From: Bacillus sp. HMF5848
GTDB lineage: Bacteria; Bacillota; Bacilli; Bacillales; HMF5848
Direction: 5' to 3'
Assembly: GCF_003944835.1 (NCBI RefSeq)
Contig: NZ_RWIV01000001.1
Coordinates: 2,800,530-2,824,529, forward strand
Length of the DNA: 24,000 nt
Below are positions 3,330 to 23,110 of this stretch, in pieces. The position numbers and the translations under genes were made by a program. The notes beneath the pieces are model-generated. The model saw only the letters and a list, made by a program, of their open reading frames with translations, searched no databases and was not told the DNA's origin. Positions within the stretch are counted from its first letter, which is position 1. Every line of letters starts with the position of its first letter.

Positions 3330-3737
3330 TTACATTTCTTCTTCAATATCCACTTCTTGTTTTTGGTTTTCAAACTGAATTCCCACAACGTGAACATTTA
3401 CTTCTTTTACATCTAAAGCTGTCATATTAACTAATGCTTCACGAATATTGTCTTGAACTTTTTTCGCAACAGTTGGAATAGATACACCAAACGTCATTGA
3501 ACAATATACGTCTAACACTATTCCTTCCTCGGCAAGCTCTACTTTAATACCTTTACCATGATTCTTTTTTCCTAATCGCTCAACAACACCTGCAGCAAAG
3601 TTACCGCGCATTTGCGCTACTCCTTCAACTTCAGACGCAGCAATACCAGCAATAACTTCAATTACTTCAGGAGCAATCTCAACTTTTCCTAAGCCAGTCT
3701 CCCCTGGATTCATATCTAGCAAATTATTTTCCGTCAA
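3330..3737 (-). CDS. yqhY: Asp23/Gls24 family (alkaline shock protein-like) envelope stress protein
   Basis: 135-aa ORF with the typical Asp23 core (GKVEIAPEVIEVIAGIAASEVEGV). TTG start 6 nt after GGAGGTG. It holds the same position as B. subtilis yqhY, between accC and nusB. Confidence 0.88.
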   Translation of the reverse strand: MTENNLLDMNPGETGLGKVEIAPEVIEVIAGIAASEVEGVAQMRGNFAAGVVERLGKKNHGKGIKVELAEEGIVLDVYCSMTFGVSIPTVAKKVQDNIREALVNMTALDVKEVNVHVVGIQFENQKQEVDIEEEM

Positions 3738-6060: not shown

Positions 6061-6648
6061 TTATTCGCTTACTGGTGGCAAGAAACTTACATACACATCA
6101 TTAATTCCTTTTATTTCTTGACGAACCATGTGCATAATATCATTTGCTTCTTTTGCTGATAACTGTTCGGACTGGACAGTTACCTTTACATGATTATCTT
6201 CAGCGTACACTAACGCTTCAGAAAAACCTAATTCGCTTTTTATTAATGTTTCGATGATTTTTTCTTTTTCCATAATATAAGTTAGATCTTGTAATTTTTC
6301 GCTCGCCTCATTAATCTTGTCTGTTGGTAAATTTGTTGATGCCATAATTGAAGTTAAATTCTCTTGTATACGACTTCTAGAGTCCTCATATTGCATACGT
6401 GCTGTCATGAAGAAGTCGTTTGTTGCCAAACTGGATGTGACAGATCCATCCTCTGCTTGCTCTACAGTTCCATTACTCTCACCTATCGTTGCCATATCTT
6501 CAGTTTGTTGCATCTCATTCTCTTGGGCTACATCTTGTTCGGTATAAGCAAGCTCATCCTCTACAGGTGAAGTTATATAATATACAGATAGAACAGCTAC
6601 AAGGCTCAACATAGTTAACAACCAAACAGTTTGCTTTTTCAATAACAT
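6061..6648 (-). CDS. spoIIIAH: Stage III sporulation protein AH (forespore feeding-channel component)
   Basis: N-terminus MLLKKQTVWLLTMLSLVAVLSVYYI is almost identical to B. subtilis SpoIIIAH, followed by an acidic linker and a C-terminal YscJ-like domain. The start at 6648 is preceded by AAGGGGGAA. The longer tracked ORF (to 6705) overlaps spoIIIAG and is not supported. Confidence 0.93.
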   Translation of the reverse strand: MLLKKQTVWLLTMLSLVAVLSVYYITSPVEDELAYTEQDVAQENEMQQTEDMATIGESNGTVEQAEDGSVTSSLATNDFFMTARMQYEDSRSRIQENLTSIMASTNLPTDKINEASEKLQDLTYIMEKEKIIETLIKSELGFSEALVYAEDNHVKVTVQSEQLSAKEANDIMHMVRQEIKGINDVYVSFLPPVSE

Positions 6649-6649
6649 T

Positions 6650-7315
6650 TTAAGATTCCCCCTTATCTTTTTTCGGTAAAACTGCAACACGGTGTACCGG
6701 TACATCTAGAACACTCGTTACTGCTTCAAGTATCCATTTTTTCACTTGTACATTATCAGCACCGTTTGCTACAATCAAAACCCCTCGTATTTCAGGTTTT
6801 TTTGTTTTTAAAATAATTGGTACTTCTTGTTCTCCATTTCGAATAACGACAACTTGCTCATCCCTAGAAACATCTTCGACTCTGCGCTTACCACCCTCTC
6901 GATCTGTTTCATCGGTTGTTTGATTTTGTGTTACTATATTTTTCTCTAGCACTTTCGATTCAGTTGCATCAACATTAACGACGATAGTCACATCACTTAC
7001 ACCGACTATTTCATCTAAAGCTTCCTTTAGCTGGTTCTCATACATTCGTTCGTACTCTAAAATAGTTTGTGGGTTGCTTTCTTCCTTTTGTCCAAACGTG
7101 GCCACATCTTCATTTGGTGCGGTAGCATTAAAGGTTGGCACAGCATCATTCCTGTTCGTACCTGCAAACCAATTTCCAAACATCATAAGAGTAACACCAG
7201 CTACAAGGATTATGATGGCATAACGCCACTTTGTTACTGGTTGTGAAGGTGGTGATTCGCCATCTTTTTTTATAAATGATTGTATTTTCTGCCACCATGT
7301 ACTATTTTGACTCAT
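6650..7315 (-). CDS. spoIIIAG: Stage III sporulation protein AG
   Basis: 221-aa ORF with an N-terminal TM helix and a C-terminal ring-building motif region (VRGVLIVANGADN). Operon position matches. RBS GGGGGGAGGA. Confidence 0.92.
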   Translation of the reverse strand: MSQNSTWWQKIQSFIKKDGESPPSQPVTKWRYAIIILVAGVTLMMFGNWFAGTNRNDAVPTFNATAPNEDVATFGQKEESNPQTILEYERMYENQLKEALDEIVGVSDVTIVVNVDATESKVLEKNIVTQNQTTDETDREGGKRRVEDVSRDEQVVVIRNGEQEVPIILKTKKPEIRGVLIVANGADNVQVKKWILEAVTSVLDVPVHRVAVLPKKDKGES

Positions 7316-11908: not shown

Positions 11909-11938
11909 AAAAAACCCACACTCTATAAAGAGTGTGGG
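11909..11938 (-). terminator. Rho-independent terminator after efp
   Basis: Minus strand reads CCCACACTC-TTTATA-GAGTGTGGG followed by TTTTTT, 17 nt after the efp stop. Confidence 0.85.
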
Positions 11939-11955: not shown

Positions 11956-12513
11956 TTATGCACGTGAAACGTAGCTAGCTTCAGACGTGTTGATAATAAG
12001 TACATCACCTTCGTTAATGAATAATGGTACCTGTACGGAAAGACCTGTTTCAAGAACAGCAGATTTAGAACCACCTTGTGCGGTATCACCTTTAATGCCT
12101 GGCTCTGTCTCAACAACTTTTAATTCTACAGTGTTAGGTAGTTCCACACCTAATGTTTCTGTTTGATACATCATAATATGTACTTCCATGTTCTCTTTTA
12201 AAAATTTCAGCTCACGTTCAATTTGAGCTGCTGCTAATTCGAGCTGTTCATATGATTCGTTGTCCATGAAGACATGCATATCTCCACTTGCATATAAATA
12301 TTGCATTTTACGATTTTCAATATGCGCTTTTTCAACTTTTTCACCTGCACGGAAAGTCTTTTCTTGTACGGCACCAGTACGTAAGTTACGAAGTTTTGAA
12401 CGCACAAACGCTGCACCTTTCCCCGGCTTTACGTGTTGGAAATCGATAACTTGCCAAATTCCCCCATCGACCTCAATTGTTAAACCTGTACGAAAATCAT
12501 TTACTGAAATCAT
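11956..12513 (-). CDS. efp: Translation elongation factor P
   Basis: 185-aa ORF with a canonical EF-P sequence ([16 protein letters not shown]; [21 protein letters not shown]). Confidence 0.97.
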
Positions 12514-14157: not shown

Positions 14158-14706
14158 TTATGTGGCATCAGCAGTTTGAGTCTCAGGTGTATTTTGTTCT
14201 TCACGATTATTAACCTGTAATTCATTATACTCAAACGTAATAGAGTACCCTATAAATACACCATATAATATATATAAGCATACATTTGTTATTATCGTAT
14301 TTCGCTTAAGTTCTGTTACAGCAGGTACATTTTGAAAGATTGGATTTAACAAATAAAACACAACTCCCCAAAGAACAGCACCGAATATAGCTCCTATCCA
14401 AATATTTTGATACTTCTTCAATACAGCATAATATAAAAAAGCAACAGCAATTGATATTGCACCTATAACTACAATAGAAATAAATTGACCTAATATCGTT
14501 TGTTTCCATTCACCAACTGCCCAAGGTTCTAAGATCATATTCGGAGCAATTTCTGTGAAATTAATTATATAAGCTAAATACCCTAAGAAACTCCAAAATA
14601 ATCCTCCGAATAGACCAATCATTAAAATTTTTACAGGAAATGAAATTGGCTTTTCTCGCTGATTTTGTTCTAATTTTTCATTTTGTTCACTTGAATTATT
14701 TTGCAA
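14158..14706 (-). CDS. yqhR: Membrane protein YqhR
   Basis: Four predicted TM helices, with blocks resembling B. subtilis YqhR (LGYLAYIINFTEIAPNMILEPW; VTELKRNTIIT; GYSITFEYNEL). Likely TTG start at 14706, 6 nt after GGAGGTG. The tracked ORF extends to 14736. Confidence 0.8.
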   Translation of the reverse strand: MQNNSSEQNEKLEQNQREKPISFPVKILMIGLFGGLFWSFLGYLAYIINFTEIAPNMILEPWAVGEWKQTILGQFISIVVIGAISIAVAFLYYAVLKKYQNIWIGAIFGAVLWGVVFYLLNPIFQNVPAVTELKRNTIITNVCLYILYGVFIGYSITFEYNELQVNNREEQNTPETQTADAT

Positions 14707-15115
14707 TATAAACACCTCCATTTGTAGTATAACCATTCAGGCTATAATCATGATGAAGAATGATATCGTTAAATGCCCATGCCAAATTAGTGTAATTTTG
14801 TGGAAAAAGGGGTATAATATAAAGTGAATATTAGCCTATAGAGCTTTTGATTATTTTTTTGTAAAATATCAGAATAGACACTATTTGTCGTCGCATCTTC
14901 CTAATATTCATTTGAAATGTGAGCCGTTTCAATTGGAGTTAGAGCGACTTGTGTTTTCGATCACCTCGTTCTCCCCAATTTGTCATTCAATAATTTGCGA
15001 CTTCAAAAAAGTTCACAATCTTAGGCTCCGATAATAAGACAAAAAAACAGCATATACCTTACCACATAAAAATTTTTATGGTAGGTAAATAAAAAATTGA
15101 CCGGAGGTGGTATTC

Positions 15116-15642: not shown

Positions 15643-16359
15643 ATGATAAGTTTTTCTTACACTTTATTGATATTGTCTTTTATTTTATATTGGCACAGAG
15701 ATAAAGAAACTAGCTTTGTTCTATTGTATAGTATTGCACTTAGTATAGTATTAGCACATGGTATTATGTCATCCTTGACGTTAGACACTACATTATTGAA
15801 CGGTTCTGTTATTATGATTGCTACTATCTTATGTTTATATATACTAGAAATAGCTGAAATACAACCGTTTCGCTTGCCTACCTTTGTACTTTATATAATA
15901 TCCTTGTTAGTTGCTTCAATATTCATAGGTTGGAACATAATTGCAGAAGCTTTTGTTGGTATTTTAATTTTCTCAAGCATATATAGACTGTTCACTACAT
16001 TACATGAAGCTAGGGAAACCTTTATTTTATTTAGTATAATTTCCGTACCTATCATATTATTATTAATTGATCAAAGTAGTACTACTTGGACATTAGCTTT
16101 ATTTCTACTTGGTGCAGGTATTGGAAATTTCTTAGAGAACATTAAAGTAAAAATGAACCCCGTGCCACTCACAGCTTTACCTACTGTTTTTTTTATTGGC
16201 TTGTTACCTGCTACCATATTTGGTATCTTAGCGATTTACTGGCAACCTGTGCTTAGTTTAGCGCTAGGCTTTTGGGTATGTTTTGTAGCTCCTTACATTT
16301 TTATCAAACTACAAATAACTAAAACAGATGTTGCTAATGTACTATCAACAAATCAGTAG
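15643..16359 (+). CDS. Hypothetical polytopic membrane protein (about 7 TM helices), family not recognised
   Basis: 238-aa ORF that is hydrophobic throughout. RBS AAAGGGGGG lies 9 nt upstream of the ATG. I can name no diagnostic motif. Confidence 0.7.
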   Translation: MISFSYTLLILSFILYWHRDKETSFVLLYSIALSIVLAHGIMSSLTLDTTLLNGSVIMIATILCLYILEIAEIQPFRLPTFVLYIISLLVASIFIGWNIIAEAFVGILIFSSIYRLFTTLHEARETFILFSIISVPIILLLIDQSSTTWTLALFLLGAGIGNFLENIKVKMNPVPLTALPTVFFIGLLPATIFGILAIYWQPVLSLALGFWVCFVAPYIFIKLQITKTDVANVLSTNQ

Positions 16360-19089: not shown

Positions 19090-19269
19090 AATCATCCCTC
19101 CTATGTGTTAGCTTTTACCGTTTAAAATAAATTTGTTAATGTAAATTTTGGTTTCATACAATCACCAAAAAATCAAATAAAAATATGTGAACATATTATG
19201 AACTAGAAAAGAATATGGTAGTGTAGTGAATGATTCTAAATATCCAACTTTTTCCAAGGGGGATTTTTG

Positions 19270-19674
19270 ATGGGAGTTCGTTTTCTTAAGATTGCGGCAT
19301 TATATTTTCTTATTGGAGTTGGAATTGGCATTTTTATGGAATCAGCAGGTGATCATGCGCTTAAGGGGGTACATGCTCATGTAAACTTAGTTGGTTGGGC
19401 CTCTATGGCCATTTTTGGGTTTATGTATCATTTATTTCCTAAGCTAGGAGAATCAATCCTCGGGAAAATTCATTTCTGGGCGTACAATATTTCCCTTCCT
19501 CTCTTTATGTTAGGTCTTGGTTTTCTTCTGTACGGGAATGCTACATTATTACCATTAGTCATAATCGGAGCCAATGTATTAGCTCTAAGTGTTGTAATTT
19601 TTGTTATTAATGTATTTGTTAATTTAAAAGCACAAGATGTATCTAGACTTAAAGACCAAAATTTATCGATGTAA
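19270..19674 (+). CDS. Small four-TM membrane protein with an HxH...GW histidine motif; function unknown
   Basis: 134-aa hydrophobic ORF. ATG lies 6 nt after AAGGGGGA. The motif GDHALKGVHAHVNLVGW...FMYH resembles metal/heme-ligand helices of heme-copper oxidase or NorB-type proteins. It is followed by a strong terminator. Confidence 0.7.
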   Translation: MGVRFLKIAALYFLIGVGIGIFMESAGDHALKGVHAHVNLVGWASMAIFGFMYHLFPKLGESILGKIHFWAYNISLPLFMLGLGFLLYGNATLLPLVIIGANVLALSVVIFVINVFVNLKAQDVSRLKDQNLSM

Positions 19675-20005: not shown

Positions 20006-21775
20006 TTATAATCCACATTTCAATTGCGCACCGCAGCTTGTACATGTATTGCAACCACCTAGGTCCTCGACTGTTCCTTGGCGACAAACGGGACAGATGT
20101 TGCCTACTTCAGATCCAATAGTTACGTCAGTTGCATGCAAATCAATAATTGTATCGACAATGACGACAGGCTTCTTTTCATTCTCTAGAAGTTCGAGTTG
20201 ATCGCCGTCATCTAAAGTATTTTCTTCTGCTTTTAGCGTTAACACCTGTGTATCACGACTTCCATCAACGTACACTGTGCCGCCTTTTGCGCCACCTTTG
20301 TATAATCTCTCATACACTTTCTCTACTTGTTCTACGGTGTATCCTCGCGGAGCGTTTACGGTTTTACTAATGGAACTGTCAATCCAACGCTGAATGACGC
20401 ATTGGACATCCGCATGTGCTTCGGCTGATAATTCCATCGCAGACACAAACCAATGTGGTAAATTATTTGGGTCTGCTTCAGGATGCTGTTCTAAATATTC
20501 TTGAACAATATCTGCTTTTACTTCGATAAACTTCCCAAGACGTCCACTTCGGAAATATGAGAAGGAAAAATAAGGTTCTAATCCTGTTGATACTCCTACC
20601 ATTGTCCCTGTACTTCCCGTTGGGGCAACAGTCAATAAATGAGAATTTCGTATACCGTATTTCAAAATATCTTCTCTTACATGAATAGGCATCTTTTTCA
20701 TAAAGCCTGAATTAGTGAAGGCTTCGCGCAAAGATATCGTTTCTTCTTCTGTTTCACCGACTAAAAACGGGAAGCTGCCTTTTTCCTTCGCCAATTCAAT
20801 CGACTCTTCATAAGCCGTAACAGCTATCGTTTCGAAGACTTTATCGACTAACGCATTACCAGGCTCAGATCCATACTCCGTTTCACAGTATATGAGAAGA
20901 TCATGCAAGCCCATGACACCAAGACCGACGCGTCGTTCGCCCAGTGCTTGCTTTTTGTTTTCATTTAAAAAGTATGGTGTCGCATTAATAACGTTATCCT
21001 GAAGTCTAACGCCAACACGAACGGTTTCTTTTAATTTTTCAATGTTTAGCGTTTTTGTTTGCTTATCCGCCATATTTGCTAAGTTCACTGCAGCCAAATT
21101 ACAAACAGAATACGGCGCGAGTGGCTGCTCCCCGCACGGATTAGTCGCGACTACCTTTTGACCATAAGCACGAGCGTTTGTCATGTCATTCGCATTATCC
21201 ATAAAAAATATACCAGGTTCCGCTGAATATGTCGCACATACGTTGACTAAATTCCAAAGCTCTTTTGCTTGAATCTTTCGGTACGTACGAACTTTGTAAC
21301 CCATTGCTTCCCATTCTCGTACATCGCCGACTTCATGCCACTTTTCATTATAATCTTTCATATCACTAGCATTATAGCTTTCTACATCAGGAAAACGCAG
21401 TTCGTACACATCATCACGATCTACTGCATCCATAAAGTCCTTCGTTAAACAAACTGAAATATTGGCACCTGTTAAGAATTCAGAGTTATGTACACTATAC
21501 GTGCCCCCTGTTTTTAACTTTTGCGCTGCATCCGCAATAATTTTTTCATCAAAGCCGCCATTACCTTCAATATTACGATAATTCACAATGCTTTGGTACA
21601 TGACGCGCTCTTGCTCCGTTAAAGGTGTAAACTTCAATTTATCTTGTGCTGCTTTTCTGATTTGCTCATCGTTTGTGATTTCTATTAAATAACGGAGTAT
21701 TCTTGGATTTTGCATTTTAGAGATAATAAATTCAATTATATCTGGGTGCCAATCGGCGAGCATTATCATTTGAGC
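20006..21775 (-). CDS. nrdJ: Class II (adenosylcobalamin-dependent) ribonucleotide reductase, exon 2 (C-terminal 589 aa)
   Basis: Begins AQMIMLADWHPDIIEFIISK. Contains the catalytic NPCGEQPL motif (thiyl-radical Cys plus Glu), VCNLAAVNL and TVAPTGSTG, and a C-terminal Cys-rich tail. The tracked TTG 'start' has no RBS, and its last G is assigned here as the intron's terminal G. Join with 22130..22924 for an 854-aa protein. Confidence 0.93.
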   Translation of the reverse strand, partial: AQMIMLADWHPDIIEFIISKMQNPRILRYLIEITNDEQIRKAAQDKLKFTPLTEQERVMYQSIVNYRNIEGNGGFDEKIIADAAQKLKTGGTYSVHNSEFLTGANISVCLTKDFMDAVDRDDVYELRFPDVESYNASDMKDYNEKWHEVGDVREWEAMGYKVRTYRKIQAKELWNLVNVCATYSAEPGIFFMDNANDMTNARAYGQKVVATNPCGEQPLAPYSVCNLAAVNLANMADKQTKTLNIEKLKETVRVGVRLQDNVINATPYFLNENKKQALGERRVGLGVMGLHDLLIYCETEYGSEPGNALVDKVFETIAVTAYEESIELAKEKGSFPFLVGETEEETISLREAFTNSGFMKKMPIHVREDILKYGIRNSHLLTVAPTGSTGTMVGVSTGLEPYFSFSYFRSGRLGKFIEVKADIVQEYLEQHPEADPNNLPHWFVSAMELSAEAHADVQCVIQRWIDSSISKTVNAPRGYTVEQVEKVYERLYKGGAKGGTVYVDGSRDTQVLTLKAEENTLDDGDQLELLENEKKPVVIVDTIIDLHATDVTIGSEVGNICPVCRQGTVEDLGGCNTCTSCGAQLKCGL

Positions 21776-22129
21776 CAAGATTTGTTACTCACTCTATCGA
21801 GTGGGACAGGTCATTTCTGCCTGTCTCTTACACTTTCATGTAAGTTCAGACTATATCTTCAAAGAACATCTTTGTCTTGCGCCCCAATAGTCTAGTTACC
21901 TCAGACTATGGCTTACTTCTTCCATATACCTGTTTTTACTTAGGAAGTTTCAGTAGTCGTTGAACGTTCATCTTTGTTTCCAAAGACGCTTCGCTGCTGA
22001 TTGCCCATTGTTATATCTTAATACTTTTAAAACGTTCACGCTTGCTGTTACCAGCTACGTTGTAGTGTATTAAGCTTTAGGGGTTTCCAGCAATTCGCAA
22101 GATTCGTTTATAGACGAGGCACACTATTT
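21776..22129 (-). ncRNA. Group I self-splicing intron (IA-like, no ORF) interrupting nrdJ
   Basis: 354 nt. The 5' exon ends in U (22130) and the intron ends in G (21776). P1 pairs exon AGACGUGGU (22138-22130) with intron GCCUCGUCU (22120-22112), with a U-G at the splice site. Core elements by eye are P AAUUGCUGGAAACCCC (22095-22080), Q AAUCAGCAGC (22002-21993), R GUUCAACGACUAC (21965-21953) and S AAGAUAUAGUCU (21859-21848). P pairs with Q (UUGCUG/CAGCAG) and R pairs with S (GACUA/UAGUC). Stable 3' hairpins follow. An in-frame stop lies two codons into the insert. Confidence 0.85.
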
Positions 22130-22924
22130 ACCACGTCTTGATCCACCTTGTTCAACTAAATGAGTCAATTTAGCAATATCGTCTAACCATGATACTGAAC
22201 CAGATGATTTTCCATTAACACCTCGTGCTAACGTGTTACGTGGTCTCAATGTTGAACCGTTCGTACCAACGCCACCACCGCGACTCATAATCTCCATCAC
22301 TTGTTTACGGTGTTCCGAGATACCTTCACGAGAATCCGGTACGAAAGGCATAACATAACAATTAAAAAAAGTCACTTCGGTTTGAGAGCCAGCTCCGTAT
22401 AATACACGACCAGCAGGCACAAAATTTAAGTTCACTAGCTGTTTATAAAATTTTCGAAACCACTCCTGGCGTTTTTCTTCCGTTTTTTCGACAGCGGCTA
22501 ACCCTGTAGCATTACGCATGGCAATTTGCTCATAAAATACTTCAAGTGGTTTTTCAATTACATCTAGTGAGCGACACACCATACCTGTTTGAATCTCTTG
22601 TTCGCCTTCTAGTACTCCACGGTATTCTTCCTCAACAAGTACAGTCGCTTTTTTTTCAATCCAATCAATATCTTGTATAAATCCTAGACCACGCGCCGGA
22701 AACTTAGGGTCCTCTTTAATAGTAAGGACAACAAAATCCCCTTTAGAAAGCGTCACCTTTTCTGTATCCTTAAACGCATATCGATCAAGCATAACAAGAC
22801 GAGACACACCTTTATGTGTAATATTCATTTCAGGTGTGACTGGATGAACCTGTGGGAATAAAGAGATATCTTTATTTAAACTCTCAACATTTATTCCCGA
22901 CTGCGGATTAAGCACCACCGACAT
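22130..22924 (-). CDS. nrdJ: Class II ribonucleotide reductase, exon 1 (N-terminal 265 aa)
   Basis: MSVVLNP...GVSRLVMLDRYAFKD...FFNCYVMP...GGGVGTNGSTLRPR...LVEQGGSRRG is typical of NrdJ N-terminal and active-site regions. RBS AGGAG lies 8 nt upstream of the ATG. The ORF as tracked continues K-stop into the intron. Confidence 0.93.
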
Positions 22925-23061: not shown

Positions 23062-23077
23062 AATCAATATATAGTGT
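23062..23077 (-). promoter_or_regulatory. NrdR-box-like palindrome (proximal)
   Basis: AATCAATATATAGTGT matches 14 of 16 positions of the published NrdR box consensus acaCwAtATaTwGtgt. It lies about 140 nt upstream of the nrdJ ATG. Confidence 0.5.
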
Positions 23078-23094
23078 GTTCTTTTTACCGAATA

Positions 23095-23110
23095 ATACTA
23101 CATATTGTGT
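23095..23110 (-). promoter_or_regulatory. NrdR-box-like palindrome (distal)
   Basis: ATACTACATATTGTGT matches 14 of 16 positions of the NrdR consensus. It lies 33 bp from the proximal box, about three helical turns, as in known tandem NrdR sites. Confidence 0.5.

Follow-up and report, generated by a model that had tools for sequence, protein, structure and literature searches.

The nrdJ gene of Bacillus sp. HMF5848 is read as two adjacent open reading frames (ORFs) on the minus strand, separated by 354 nt, and it is asked here whether these nucleotides form an intron that leaves the RNA, the dead relic of one, or the spacer of a naturally split gene. The window, i.e. the whole stretch of DNA of 24,000 nucleotides (24 kb) that was analysed, was found to contain the insert at 21776..22129 (-), between two same-strand NrdJ ORFs as the original prediction had placed it. 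The insert is very probably an ORF-less group I intron of subgroup IA in a chromosomal nrdJ, and its actual splicing is predicted from the sequence.

The interrupted nrdJ gene

The upstream ORF was found to contain the N-terminal part of NrdJ with LVEQGGSRRGK and a stop at its 3′ end, followed by the downstream ORF that begins with TTG-AQMIMLADWHPDIIEFI and contains the C-terminal part (Table 1). An AGGAG ribosome-binding site (RBS) is present 9 nt 5′ of the ATG of the first ORF. Neither an ATG nor an AGGAGG-like RBS before the TTG was found for the second ORF, for which a TTG start with no RBS had been predicted, and the sole start of this ORF is the TTG formed by the final intron bases. The in silico removal of the insert joined 795 and 1770 nt in phase and restored, as expected in the original prediction, an ORF of 854 amino acids with the junction GGSRRG^AQMIML (here and below the caret marks the position of an intron).

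The spliced protein was found to match NF005991 (vitamin-B12-dependent ribonucleotide reductase) with 1688.6 bits over positions 6-858 of 858 (cut-off 854) and TIGR02504 (NrdJ_Z) with 584.6 bits (cut-off 399.95), followed by matches to the Pfam families Ribonuc_red_lgN and lgC. The catalytic NPCGEQP motif and the C-terminal Cys cluster CPVCRQG..CNTCTSCG were both found in it. The host gene encodes the class II, adenosylcobalamin-dependent ribonucleotide reductase (RNR) NrdJ, with its dependence on cobalamin predicted. The nearest solved structure was that of Thermotoga maritima NrdJ (1xje), and in the alignment to it the splice junction corresponds to G209^A210, inside the KQGSRRRGALM stretch, which we take to be the specificity loop 2 of Larsson et al. 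2004.

One genome per species was scanned for uninterrupted copies, and the best 80 contiguous matches, all of them intron-less Bacillaceae loci, were 78-83% identical over residues 1-854. The stretch GGSRRGAQMIML was found to be gapless across the junction in 80/80 of these homologues, which bears out the gapless junction at RRG^A that had been put forward for checking. The ranking of the contig scan disfavours interrupted genes, so the 80 loci say nothing about the frequency of the intron, which was taken from a protein-fragment search instead. Against five intron-less homologues, dN was 0.12-0.15 for both exons with the synonymous sites saturated, for which reason no dN/dS ratio is given; the low dN at saturated synonymous sites indicates purifying selection on both halves. 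Both exons were found to be full length, with no frameshifts or stops. The G+C content was 39.5% in the intron, 40.7% in the exons and 37% in the source DNA.

Table 1. Coordinates of nrdJ, of the intron with its structural elements, and of other features of the window
Feature	Position	Strand	Description
nrdJ, N-terminal ORF	22124..22924	-	first of the two ORFs
nrdJ, C-terminal ORF	20006..21778	-	second of the two ORFs
nrdJ exon 1	22130..22924	-	codons 1-265, GGSRRG end, final base U; RBS as in the text
nrdJ exon 2	20006..21775	-	codons 266-854 and stop; first codon GCU, Ala266
Group I intron	21776..22129	-	354 nt, subgroup IA, ORF-less (very probable)
P1	22112..22138	-	exon strand 22130-22138 AGACGUGGU; internal guide strand 22112-22120 GCCUCGUCU
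P3, 5′ strand	22096..22102	-	UCUUGCG, pairs with CGCAAGA at 21875-21881; 7 bp
P4-P5-P5a/b/c domain	21995..22092	-	includes elements P and Q; P4 22087-22092 with 21995-22000; P5 22080-22082 with 22004-22006, CCC/GGG; P5a-c 22017-22074, GUAA tetraloop cap
P6/P6a hairpin	21964..21994	-	GAAA tetraloop
P7, 5′ strand	21954..21960	-	in element R, A[C]GACUA with bulged C; pairs with 21848-21853 in element S
P7.1 and P7.2	21887..21947	-	P7.1 21919-21947, CUUCC/GGAAG; P7.2 21887-21909, AUAGUCU/AGACUAU
P8	21861..21873	-	minimal 5-bp hairpin; inserts or ORF here in related introns L084, L108 and L096
P9, P9.1, P9.2	21790..21844	-	P9 21827-21844, GAAA loop; P9.1 21806-21824; P9.2 21790-21803, GAUA loop
Omega-G, terminal guanosine	21776..21776	-	3′ splice site
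Elements P, Q, R, S		-	P 22080-22095; Q 21993-22002; R 21954-21965; S 21848-21859
NrdR-box-like 16-mers (two)	23062-23079 and 23095-23110		upstream of nrdJ (start codon 22924); centres 31 bp apart
ORF, no NCBIfam match	19267-19674	+	
ORF, no NCBIfam match	14158-14736	-	
ORF, no NCBIfam match	15643-16359	+	
ORF, no NCBIfam match	6061-6705	-	
ORF, no NCBIfam match	3330-3737	-	

Boundaries and fold of the intron

The covariance model search that the original prediction had proposed for the minus strand gave a match to RF00028 (group I intron) of 90.4 bits against a gathering threshold of 50 (E 2.9e-22), covering model positions 1-253 of 253 at 22139..21827 (-). It was the sole above-threshold Rfam match in the window, and its score was the highest among the nrdJ introns scanned. 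Read on the minus strand, the exon ends in T (22130), and the intron opens with A (22129) and closes with G (21776); the T and the G agree with the original prediction, and the group I intron interrupts the class II nrdJ with the splice sites at 22130^22129 and 21776^21775. The intron contains stops in all three forward frames, so that it codes for nothing and is not an intein, and no homing endonuclease gene was found in it.

The P1 helix was found to contain nine positions with eight canonical pairs, including the terminal U22130·G22120 wobble at the 5′ splice site, and one U·U, in agreement with the helix that had been described beforehand. This pairing was unchanged in 15/15 related introns, the U·U mismatch included. 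The P1 loop contained the in-frame stop AAA-UAG (22124-22129). The hand-drawn structure has no P2, and the P10 read from the sequence was weak, with G·U and C-G followed by a U·U mismatch and C-G.

Each of the classical elements P, Q, R and S was found once in the window, and P4 (UGCUGG/UCAGCA) and P7 (GACUA/UAGUC) pair as the original prediction had stated. In P7, A[C]GACUA/UAGUCU, a G-C pair adjoins the bulged nucleotide, which is the usual place of the guanosine-binding pocket. The P3/P7 pseudoknot contained compensatory changes among the 15 relatives, and both of its helices were 100% canonical there. Between P7 and the 3′ strand of P3, two additional hairpins (P7.1 and P7.2) both appeared in the unconstrained minimum free energy (MFE) fold, and the related intron of metagenome contig L096 contained compensatory changes in P7.2. 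Such hairpins we take as a mark of subgroup IA (Michel and Westhof), to which the window intron is assigned. The MFE was -101.2 kcal/mol against -76.8 ± 5.0 for shuffled sequences (z = -4.84), and 0/100 shuffles folded as well; 78 of the 83 hand-drawn pairs reappeared in the unconstrained fold.

For the covariation, 15 distinct ORF-less introns of the window's site were aligned with G-INS-i and 43 core pairs were scored, in P3, P4, P5, P5b/c, P6, P7, the outer part of P8, and P9. The pairs were counted on this alignment because in MAFFT alignments the introns of the window type and those of the majority type were wrongly matched to each other at P8 and at the 3′ strand of P3. The core pairs were canonical in 99.1% of the cells, and compensatory double changes were found in 19 of the 43 across the 15 introns, whereas sliding the 3′ partner by 1-3 columns gave 31-40% canonical cells and 3-5 pairs with double changes, and 500 column shuffles gave maxima of 93.5% and 13 pairs. 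These controls are indicative and are not probabilities, as the introns are related to one another and the helices were drawn on the window's own sequence; a structure drawn on the window and counted on its own alignment is favoured over the slid controls.

The P3 helix of the window contained UCUUGCG/CGCAAGA whereas most others contained CCUCGUG/CGCGAGG, with three of the seven pairs compensatory. The fourth pair of P7 was U-A in the window and C-G in 13 relatives, likewise compensatory, two positions of P5 were C-G in the window where most of the other introns have U-A, and five of the seven pairs of P9 were found to vary. All the window-specific changes in P3, P5, P7 and P9 were compensated.

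Related introns and the history of the site

A search with the N-terminal fragment of 266 amino acids gave 120 protein clusters, mostly of short proteins. The C-terminal ends of 36 clusters were found right after RRG, i.e. at the window's site 265^266, followed by 42 clusters that end after GGSR (263^264), 6 after GGSRR (264^265) and 25 after MLAD (273^274). In the DNA of representatives, above-threshold group I introns were confirmed at all four sites. Within 11 codons the nrdJ of Bacillaceae contains four or more intron sites, and along the whole gene there are at least six. A site-specific scan with the P1 pattern gave 16 further copies in metagenome contigs, whereas neither this pattern nor the R/P7.1 pattern of the window type was found in 2.9 million viral contigs. 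The window's site was found to be occupied in at least 23 other public loci, by introns of 310 to 1255 nt, so the suggestion in the original prediction that the insertion site may be new is not supported. An in-frame stop was found 1-4 codons into the intron in all family members, and such an early stop has been linked to keeping ribosomes off the folding ribozyme (review PMC3984707).

The long introns at the window's site contained an ORF of 295-320 amino acids with a C-terminus that matched the DUF559/Vsr and phage 'homing endonuclease' families, and this ORF is probably the homing endonuclease for the site. The ORF-bearing introns of this majority type (L098, 1253 nt, as well as L091, L094, L099, L100, L102 and L104) encode zinc-finger-like CxxC motifs. 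Decayed remnants of the ORF were found in L088 and L090, that of L088 being frameshifted. The metagenome introns of L091 and L102 end in CATAATTA^GCACAA, i.e. in a terminal A, whereas G is present in all others; splicing may be impaired in both, even though each has an intact endonuclease ORF.

At the other sites, a group I intron was found at GGSR^R in Geobacillus (L084, 4787-5430) with an ORF of 149 amino acids that has weak helix-turn-helix matches, another at GGSRR^G (L108, 3290-3787) and another at MLAD^W in Cytobacillus kochii (L086, 4820-5141). Farther downstream in the gene, an intron of 86.5 bits was found at APTG^STG (652^653; L089, 4782-5121), and an HNH-domain ORF follows the break at APTG^STG in L090 and L108, downstream of about 4950. 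The catalytic motif itself was found to contain, at NPCG^EQP, an insert of 173 nt (L081, 5768-5940) that ends in G and has a P1-like pairing; its match to RF00028 was only 19.5 bits (E 0.006 in a 301-nt search), and it may represent a group I intron that is degenerate or very small. An N-terminal NrdJ fragment of the Bacillaceae type, 84% identical to that of the window (P0012), is labelled Mycobacteroides abscessus in NCBI, and the assembly concerned is probably contaminated.

The nearest intron, that of L096, was 88.5% identical to the window intron over 183 nt and 89.9% over 89 nt (272 nt in total), whereas its flanking exons were only 73.0% and 71.8% identical to those of the window, the exons of other loci being 68-82% identical. 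Such similarity between introns whose exons are no closer than those of other relatives suggests that the intron was transferred horizontally once the two hosts had diverged. The window and L096 represent a minority type at 265^266. From P3 to the 3′ end this type was found to be colinear with two introns of other sites, that of L108 after codon 264 (83.6% and 80.5% identity in two blocks) and that of Geobacillus L084 after codon 263 (79.9% and 72.9%), and only the first 25 nt or so, which contain the guide sequence, differ. By eye, L084 and L108 were each seen to form, at their respective sites, a P1 of 7 bp that includes the U·G, and both introns end in G. The majority type at 265^266 was found to be 70-77% identical to the window type in its 5′ half, whereas its 3′ half is different. 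Its endonuclease ORF lies in the P5 region, and the inserts of the window type lie in P8. The P8 of the window is a bare hairpin, which makes the window intron the most compact of its type, and with no endonuclease gene of its own the window copy would now be a splice-only passenger.

These likenesses are consistent with a reading, tentative and held with less than even confidence, in which one ribozyme lineage may have moved in 3-nt steps along the coding sequence of loop 2 of nrdJ (..CGU^CGU^GGU^GCN..). In most other genomes the window's own site is occupied by a second, different lineage, which has the Vsr-like endonuclease. If such steps had occurred, by a change of the guide sequence (reverse splicing) or by recombination among competing introns, the nrdJ of Bacillaceae would be a natural system for the study of site switching. 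The best phage DNA matches were introns of Staphylococcus phages, which align to about half of the window intron at 80-82% identity. A direct phage origin of the window lineage was considered and dropped despite this core match of about 80%, as the P1 and R/P7.1 patterns are missing from the viral contigs.

More than 100 group I introns have been curated from RNR entries in RNRdb (PMC2795772). The closest known counterparts interrupt the genes nrdE and nrdF in the Bacillus cereus group (Nord & Sjöberg, PMC2248736; Tourasse & Kolstø, PMC2504315). Like the window's, they are introns of subgroup IA in chromosomal RNR genes of Bacillaceae; they occupy several sites close together in conserved codons, some contain a homing endonuclease gene and others do not, and their patchy occurrence among close relatives suggests horizontal transfer. 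Their hosts are class Ib genes whereas the window host is class II nrdJ, and their endonucleases are GIY-YIG or HNH whereas the relatives at the window's site contain the DUF559/Vsr-like ORF. Their splicing has been shown by RT-PCR, whereas that of the window intron is predicted.

The original prediction had further suggested that a chromosomal nrdJ may be new as a host. In Nostoc punctiforme PCC 73102, however, the class II RNR (RIR) gene had already been reported to contain a group I intron (Meng, Zhang & Liu 2007, cited in PMC2853384 and PMC12702839), and like the window's this intron lies in the chromosomal class II reductase of a bacterium. According to the citing papers, through which this comparison was made, it differs in its cyanobacterial host and in carrying an insertion-sequence element. 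No description of nrdJ introns of Bacillaceae was found in the literature searched, most subscription journals lying outside it.

The introns of T4 (td, nrdB, nrdD), Twort (nrdE) and SPbeta (bnrdE/bnrdF) belong to the same ribozyme class as the window's (PMC3653736, PMC3984707), and phage introns in genes of nucleotide metabolism likewise occupy the most conserved RNR codons with an in-frame stop just inside; they are phage-borne whereas the window's is chromosomal. In the introns of Staphylococcus phages (e.g. in the lysin gene of PT1-4), the P3-P7 and P7-P9 cores, and only these, were alignable to the window intron, the host gene and the P1/guide being others and an HNH ORF being present. 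The recA group I introns of B. cereus and of phage 0305phi8-36 (Dassa et al., PMC2677866) contain Vsr-like (PD-(D/E)xK) homing endonucleases, comparable to the ORF of about 318 amino acids in the relatives at the window's nrdJ site, whose C-terminus is DUF559/Vsr by Pfam and PHROG matches only. The ORF lies in the P1 loop in the recA introns whereas it interrupts the P5 region in the nrdJ relatives, and the window copy is ORF-less.

Splicing, alternative readings and genomic setting

In the proposed course of events nrdJ would be transcribed as a single pre-mRNA, and the in-frame UAG two codons into the intron would stop the ribosomes and leave the RNA free to fold. The ribozyme would then fold through P1-P9 with the P3/P7 pseudoknot, followed by the attack of an exogenous guanosine after U22130 of the P1 U·G pair and the attack of the freed exon 1 after the omega-G at 21776. 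The ligated exons would read ..AGACGTGGT^GCTCAAATG.. and encode the NrdJ of 854 amino acids with ..GGSRRG-AQMIML... In this scheme self-splicing, the role of the stop codon and the route of acquisition are all inferred.

The best surviving alternative, although an improbable one, is that the intron is a splicing-dead relic and nrdJ a disrupted pseudogene in a cell that uses another reductase; a class Ib or III reductase possibly present elsewhere in the genome would allow a non-splicing copy of nrdJ to be tolerated. With no endonuclease gene the intron is not maintained by homing, its P10 is weak and its P1 mismatched, and relatives of damaged appearance exist (the terminal A of L091 and L102, the frameshift of L088). 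All the core helices are, however, intact at 90 bits, the top score among the nrdJ introns scanned, the window-specific changes are compensated throughout, and the exons are full length and undamaged with a low dN, whereas the P1 mismatch is common to all 15 family members.

It is more improbable still that the gene is naturally split, with two polypeptides that assemble after translation and a spacer that need not be removed. Split RNR genes that give an active enzyme are documented in phiYS40 (nrdJ-a/nrdJ-b) and Aeh1 (nrdA) (PMC3653736), and public annotation lists the homologous halves as two proteins. The phiYS40 spacer is, however, just 12 nt long (PMC3653736), whereas the spacer here is a high-scoring ribozyme that follows the exact rules of splice sites and breaks the gene inside the invariant loop GGSRRG^AQM. 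The downstream part of nrdJ was found to have neither an RBS and start of its own, its only TTG coming from the last bases of the intron, nor a short unstructured spacer before it. A chance resemblance to group I, or an intein, an insertion sequence or a group II intron, has a negligible probability and is refuted by the RF00028 match together with covariation far above the controls, no other Rfam family matching and the insert containing stops in all frames and neither transposase ORFs nor terminal repeats.

The window intron is a genuine group I intron, and neither its class of host gene nor its site is unique to this genome. The nrdJ of the window should be annotated as a single spliced gene. 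Dozens of public Bacillaceae genomes give the two halves as distinct 'ribonucleotide reductase' fragments or as hypothetical proteins, so that NrdJ can easily be taken for absent or broken. The preference for RNR genes that is known of group I introns is extended from class I/III to the class II of Bacillaceae, and the DNA for the invariant GGSRRGAQMIMLAD stretch appears as a crowded intron landing zone of several lineages, at which intron occupancy, endonuclease content and the divergence of exons and introns can be compared across many genomes. Existing knowledge of the group I intron mechanism is unchanged by the window intron.

The neighbours of nrdJ within the window were found to be xseA, folD, nusB, accC, accB, spoIIIAA-AG, efp, an Xaa-Pro peptidase gene and aroQ, followed by genes for a patatin-like protein, mntR, the spore photoproduct lyase (SPL; splB) and a lipoate-ligase-like (LplA-like) protein. 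The nrdJ locus has a chromosomal setting of the spore-former type, and the order rhodanese, LplA-like, nrdJ, SPL and patatin was found to be repeated in relatives. Five ORFs of 135-238 amino acids in the window had no NCBIfam match at E <= 1e-5 (Table 1).

The pattern acaCwAtATaTwgtgt, which we take to be the palindrome of the NrdR box, was found at 5 places in the window, where 0.79 matches would be expected by chance. The presence of two such 16-mers before nrdJ suggests control of the gene by NrdR; the pair probably regulates the host gene and is not part of the intron. The pattern was also matched by a near-perfect palindrome, ACACTCTATAAAGAGTGT, at 11918-11935, just 3′ of efp (11956-12513, -), which is more likely to be the stem of a terminator than an NrdR box.
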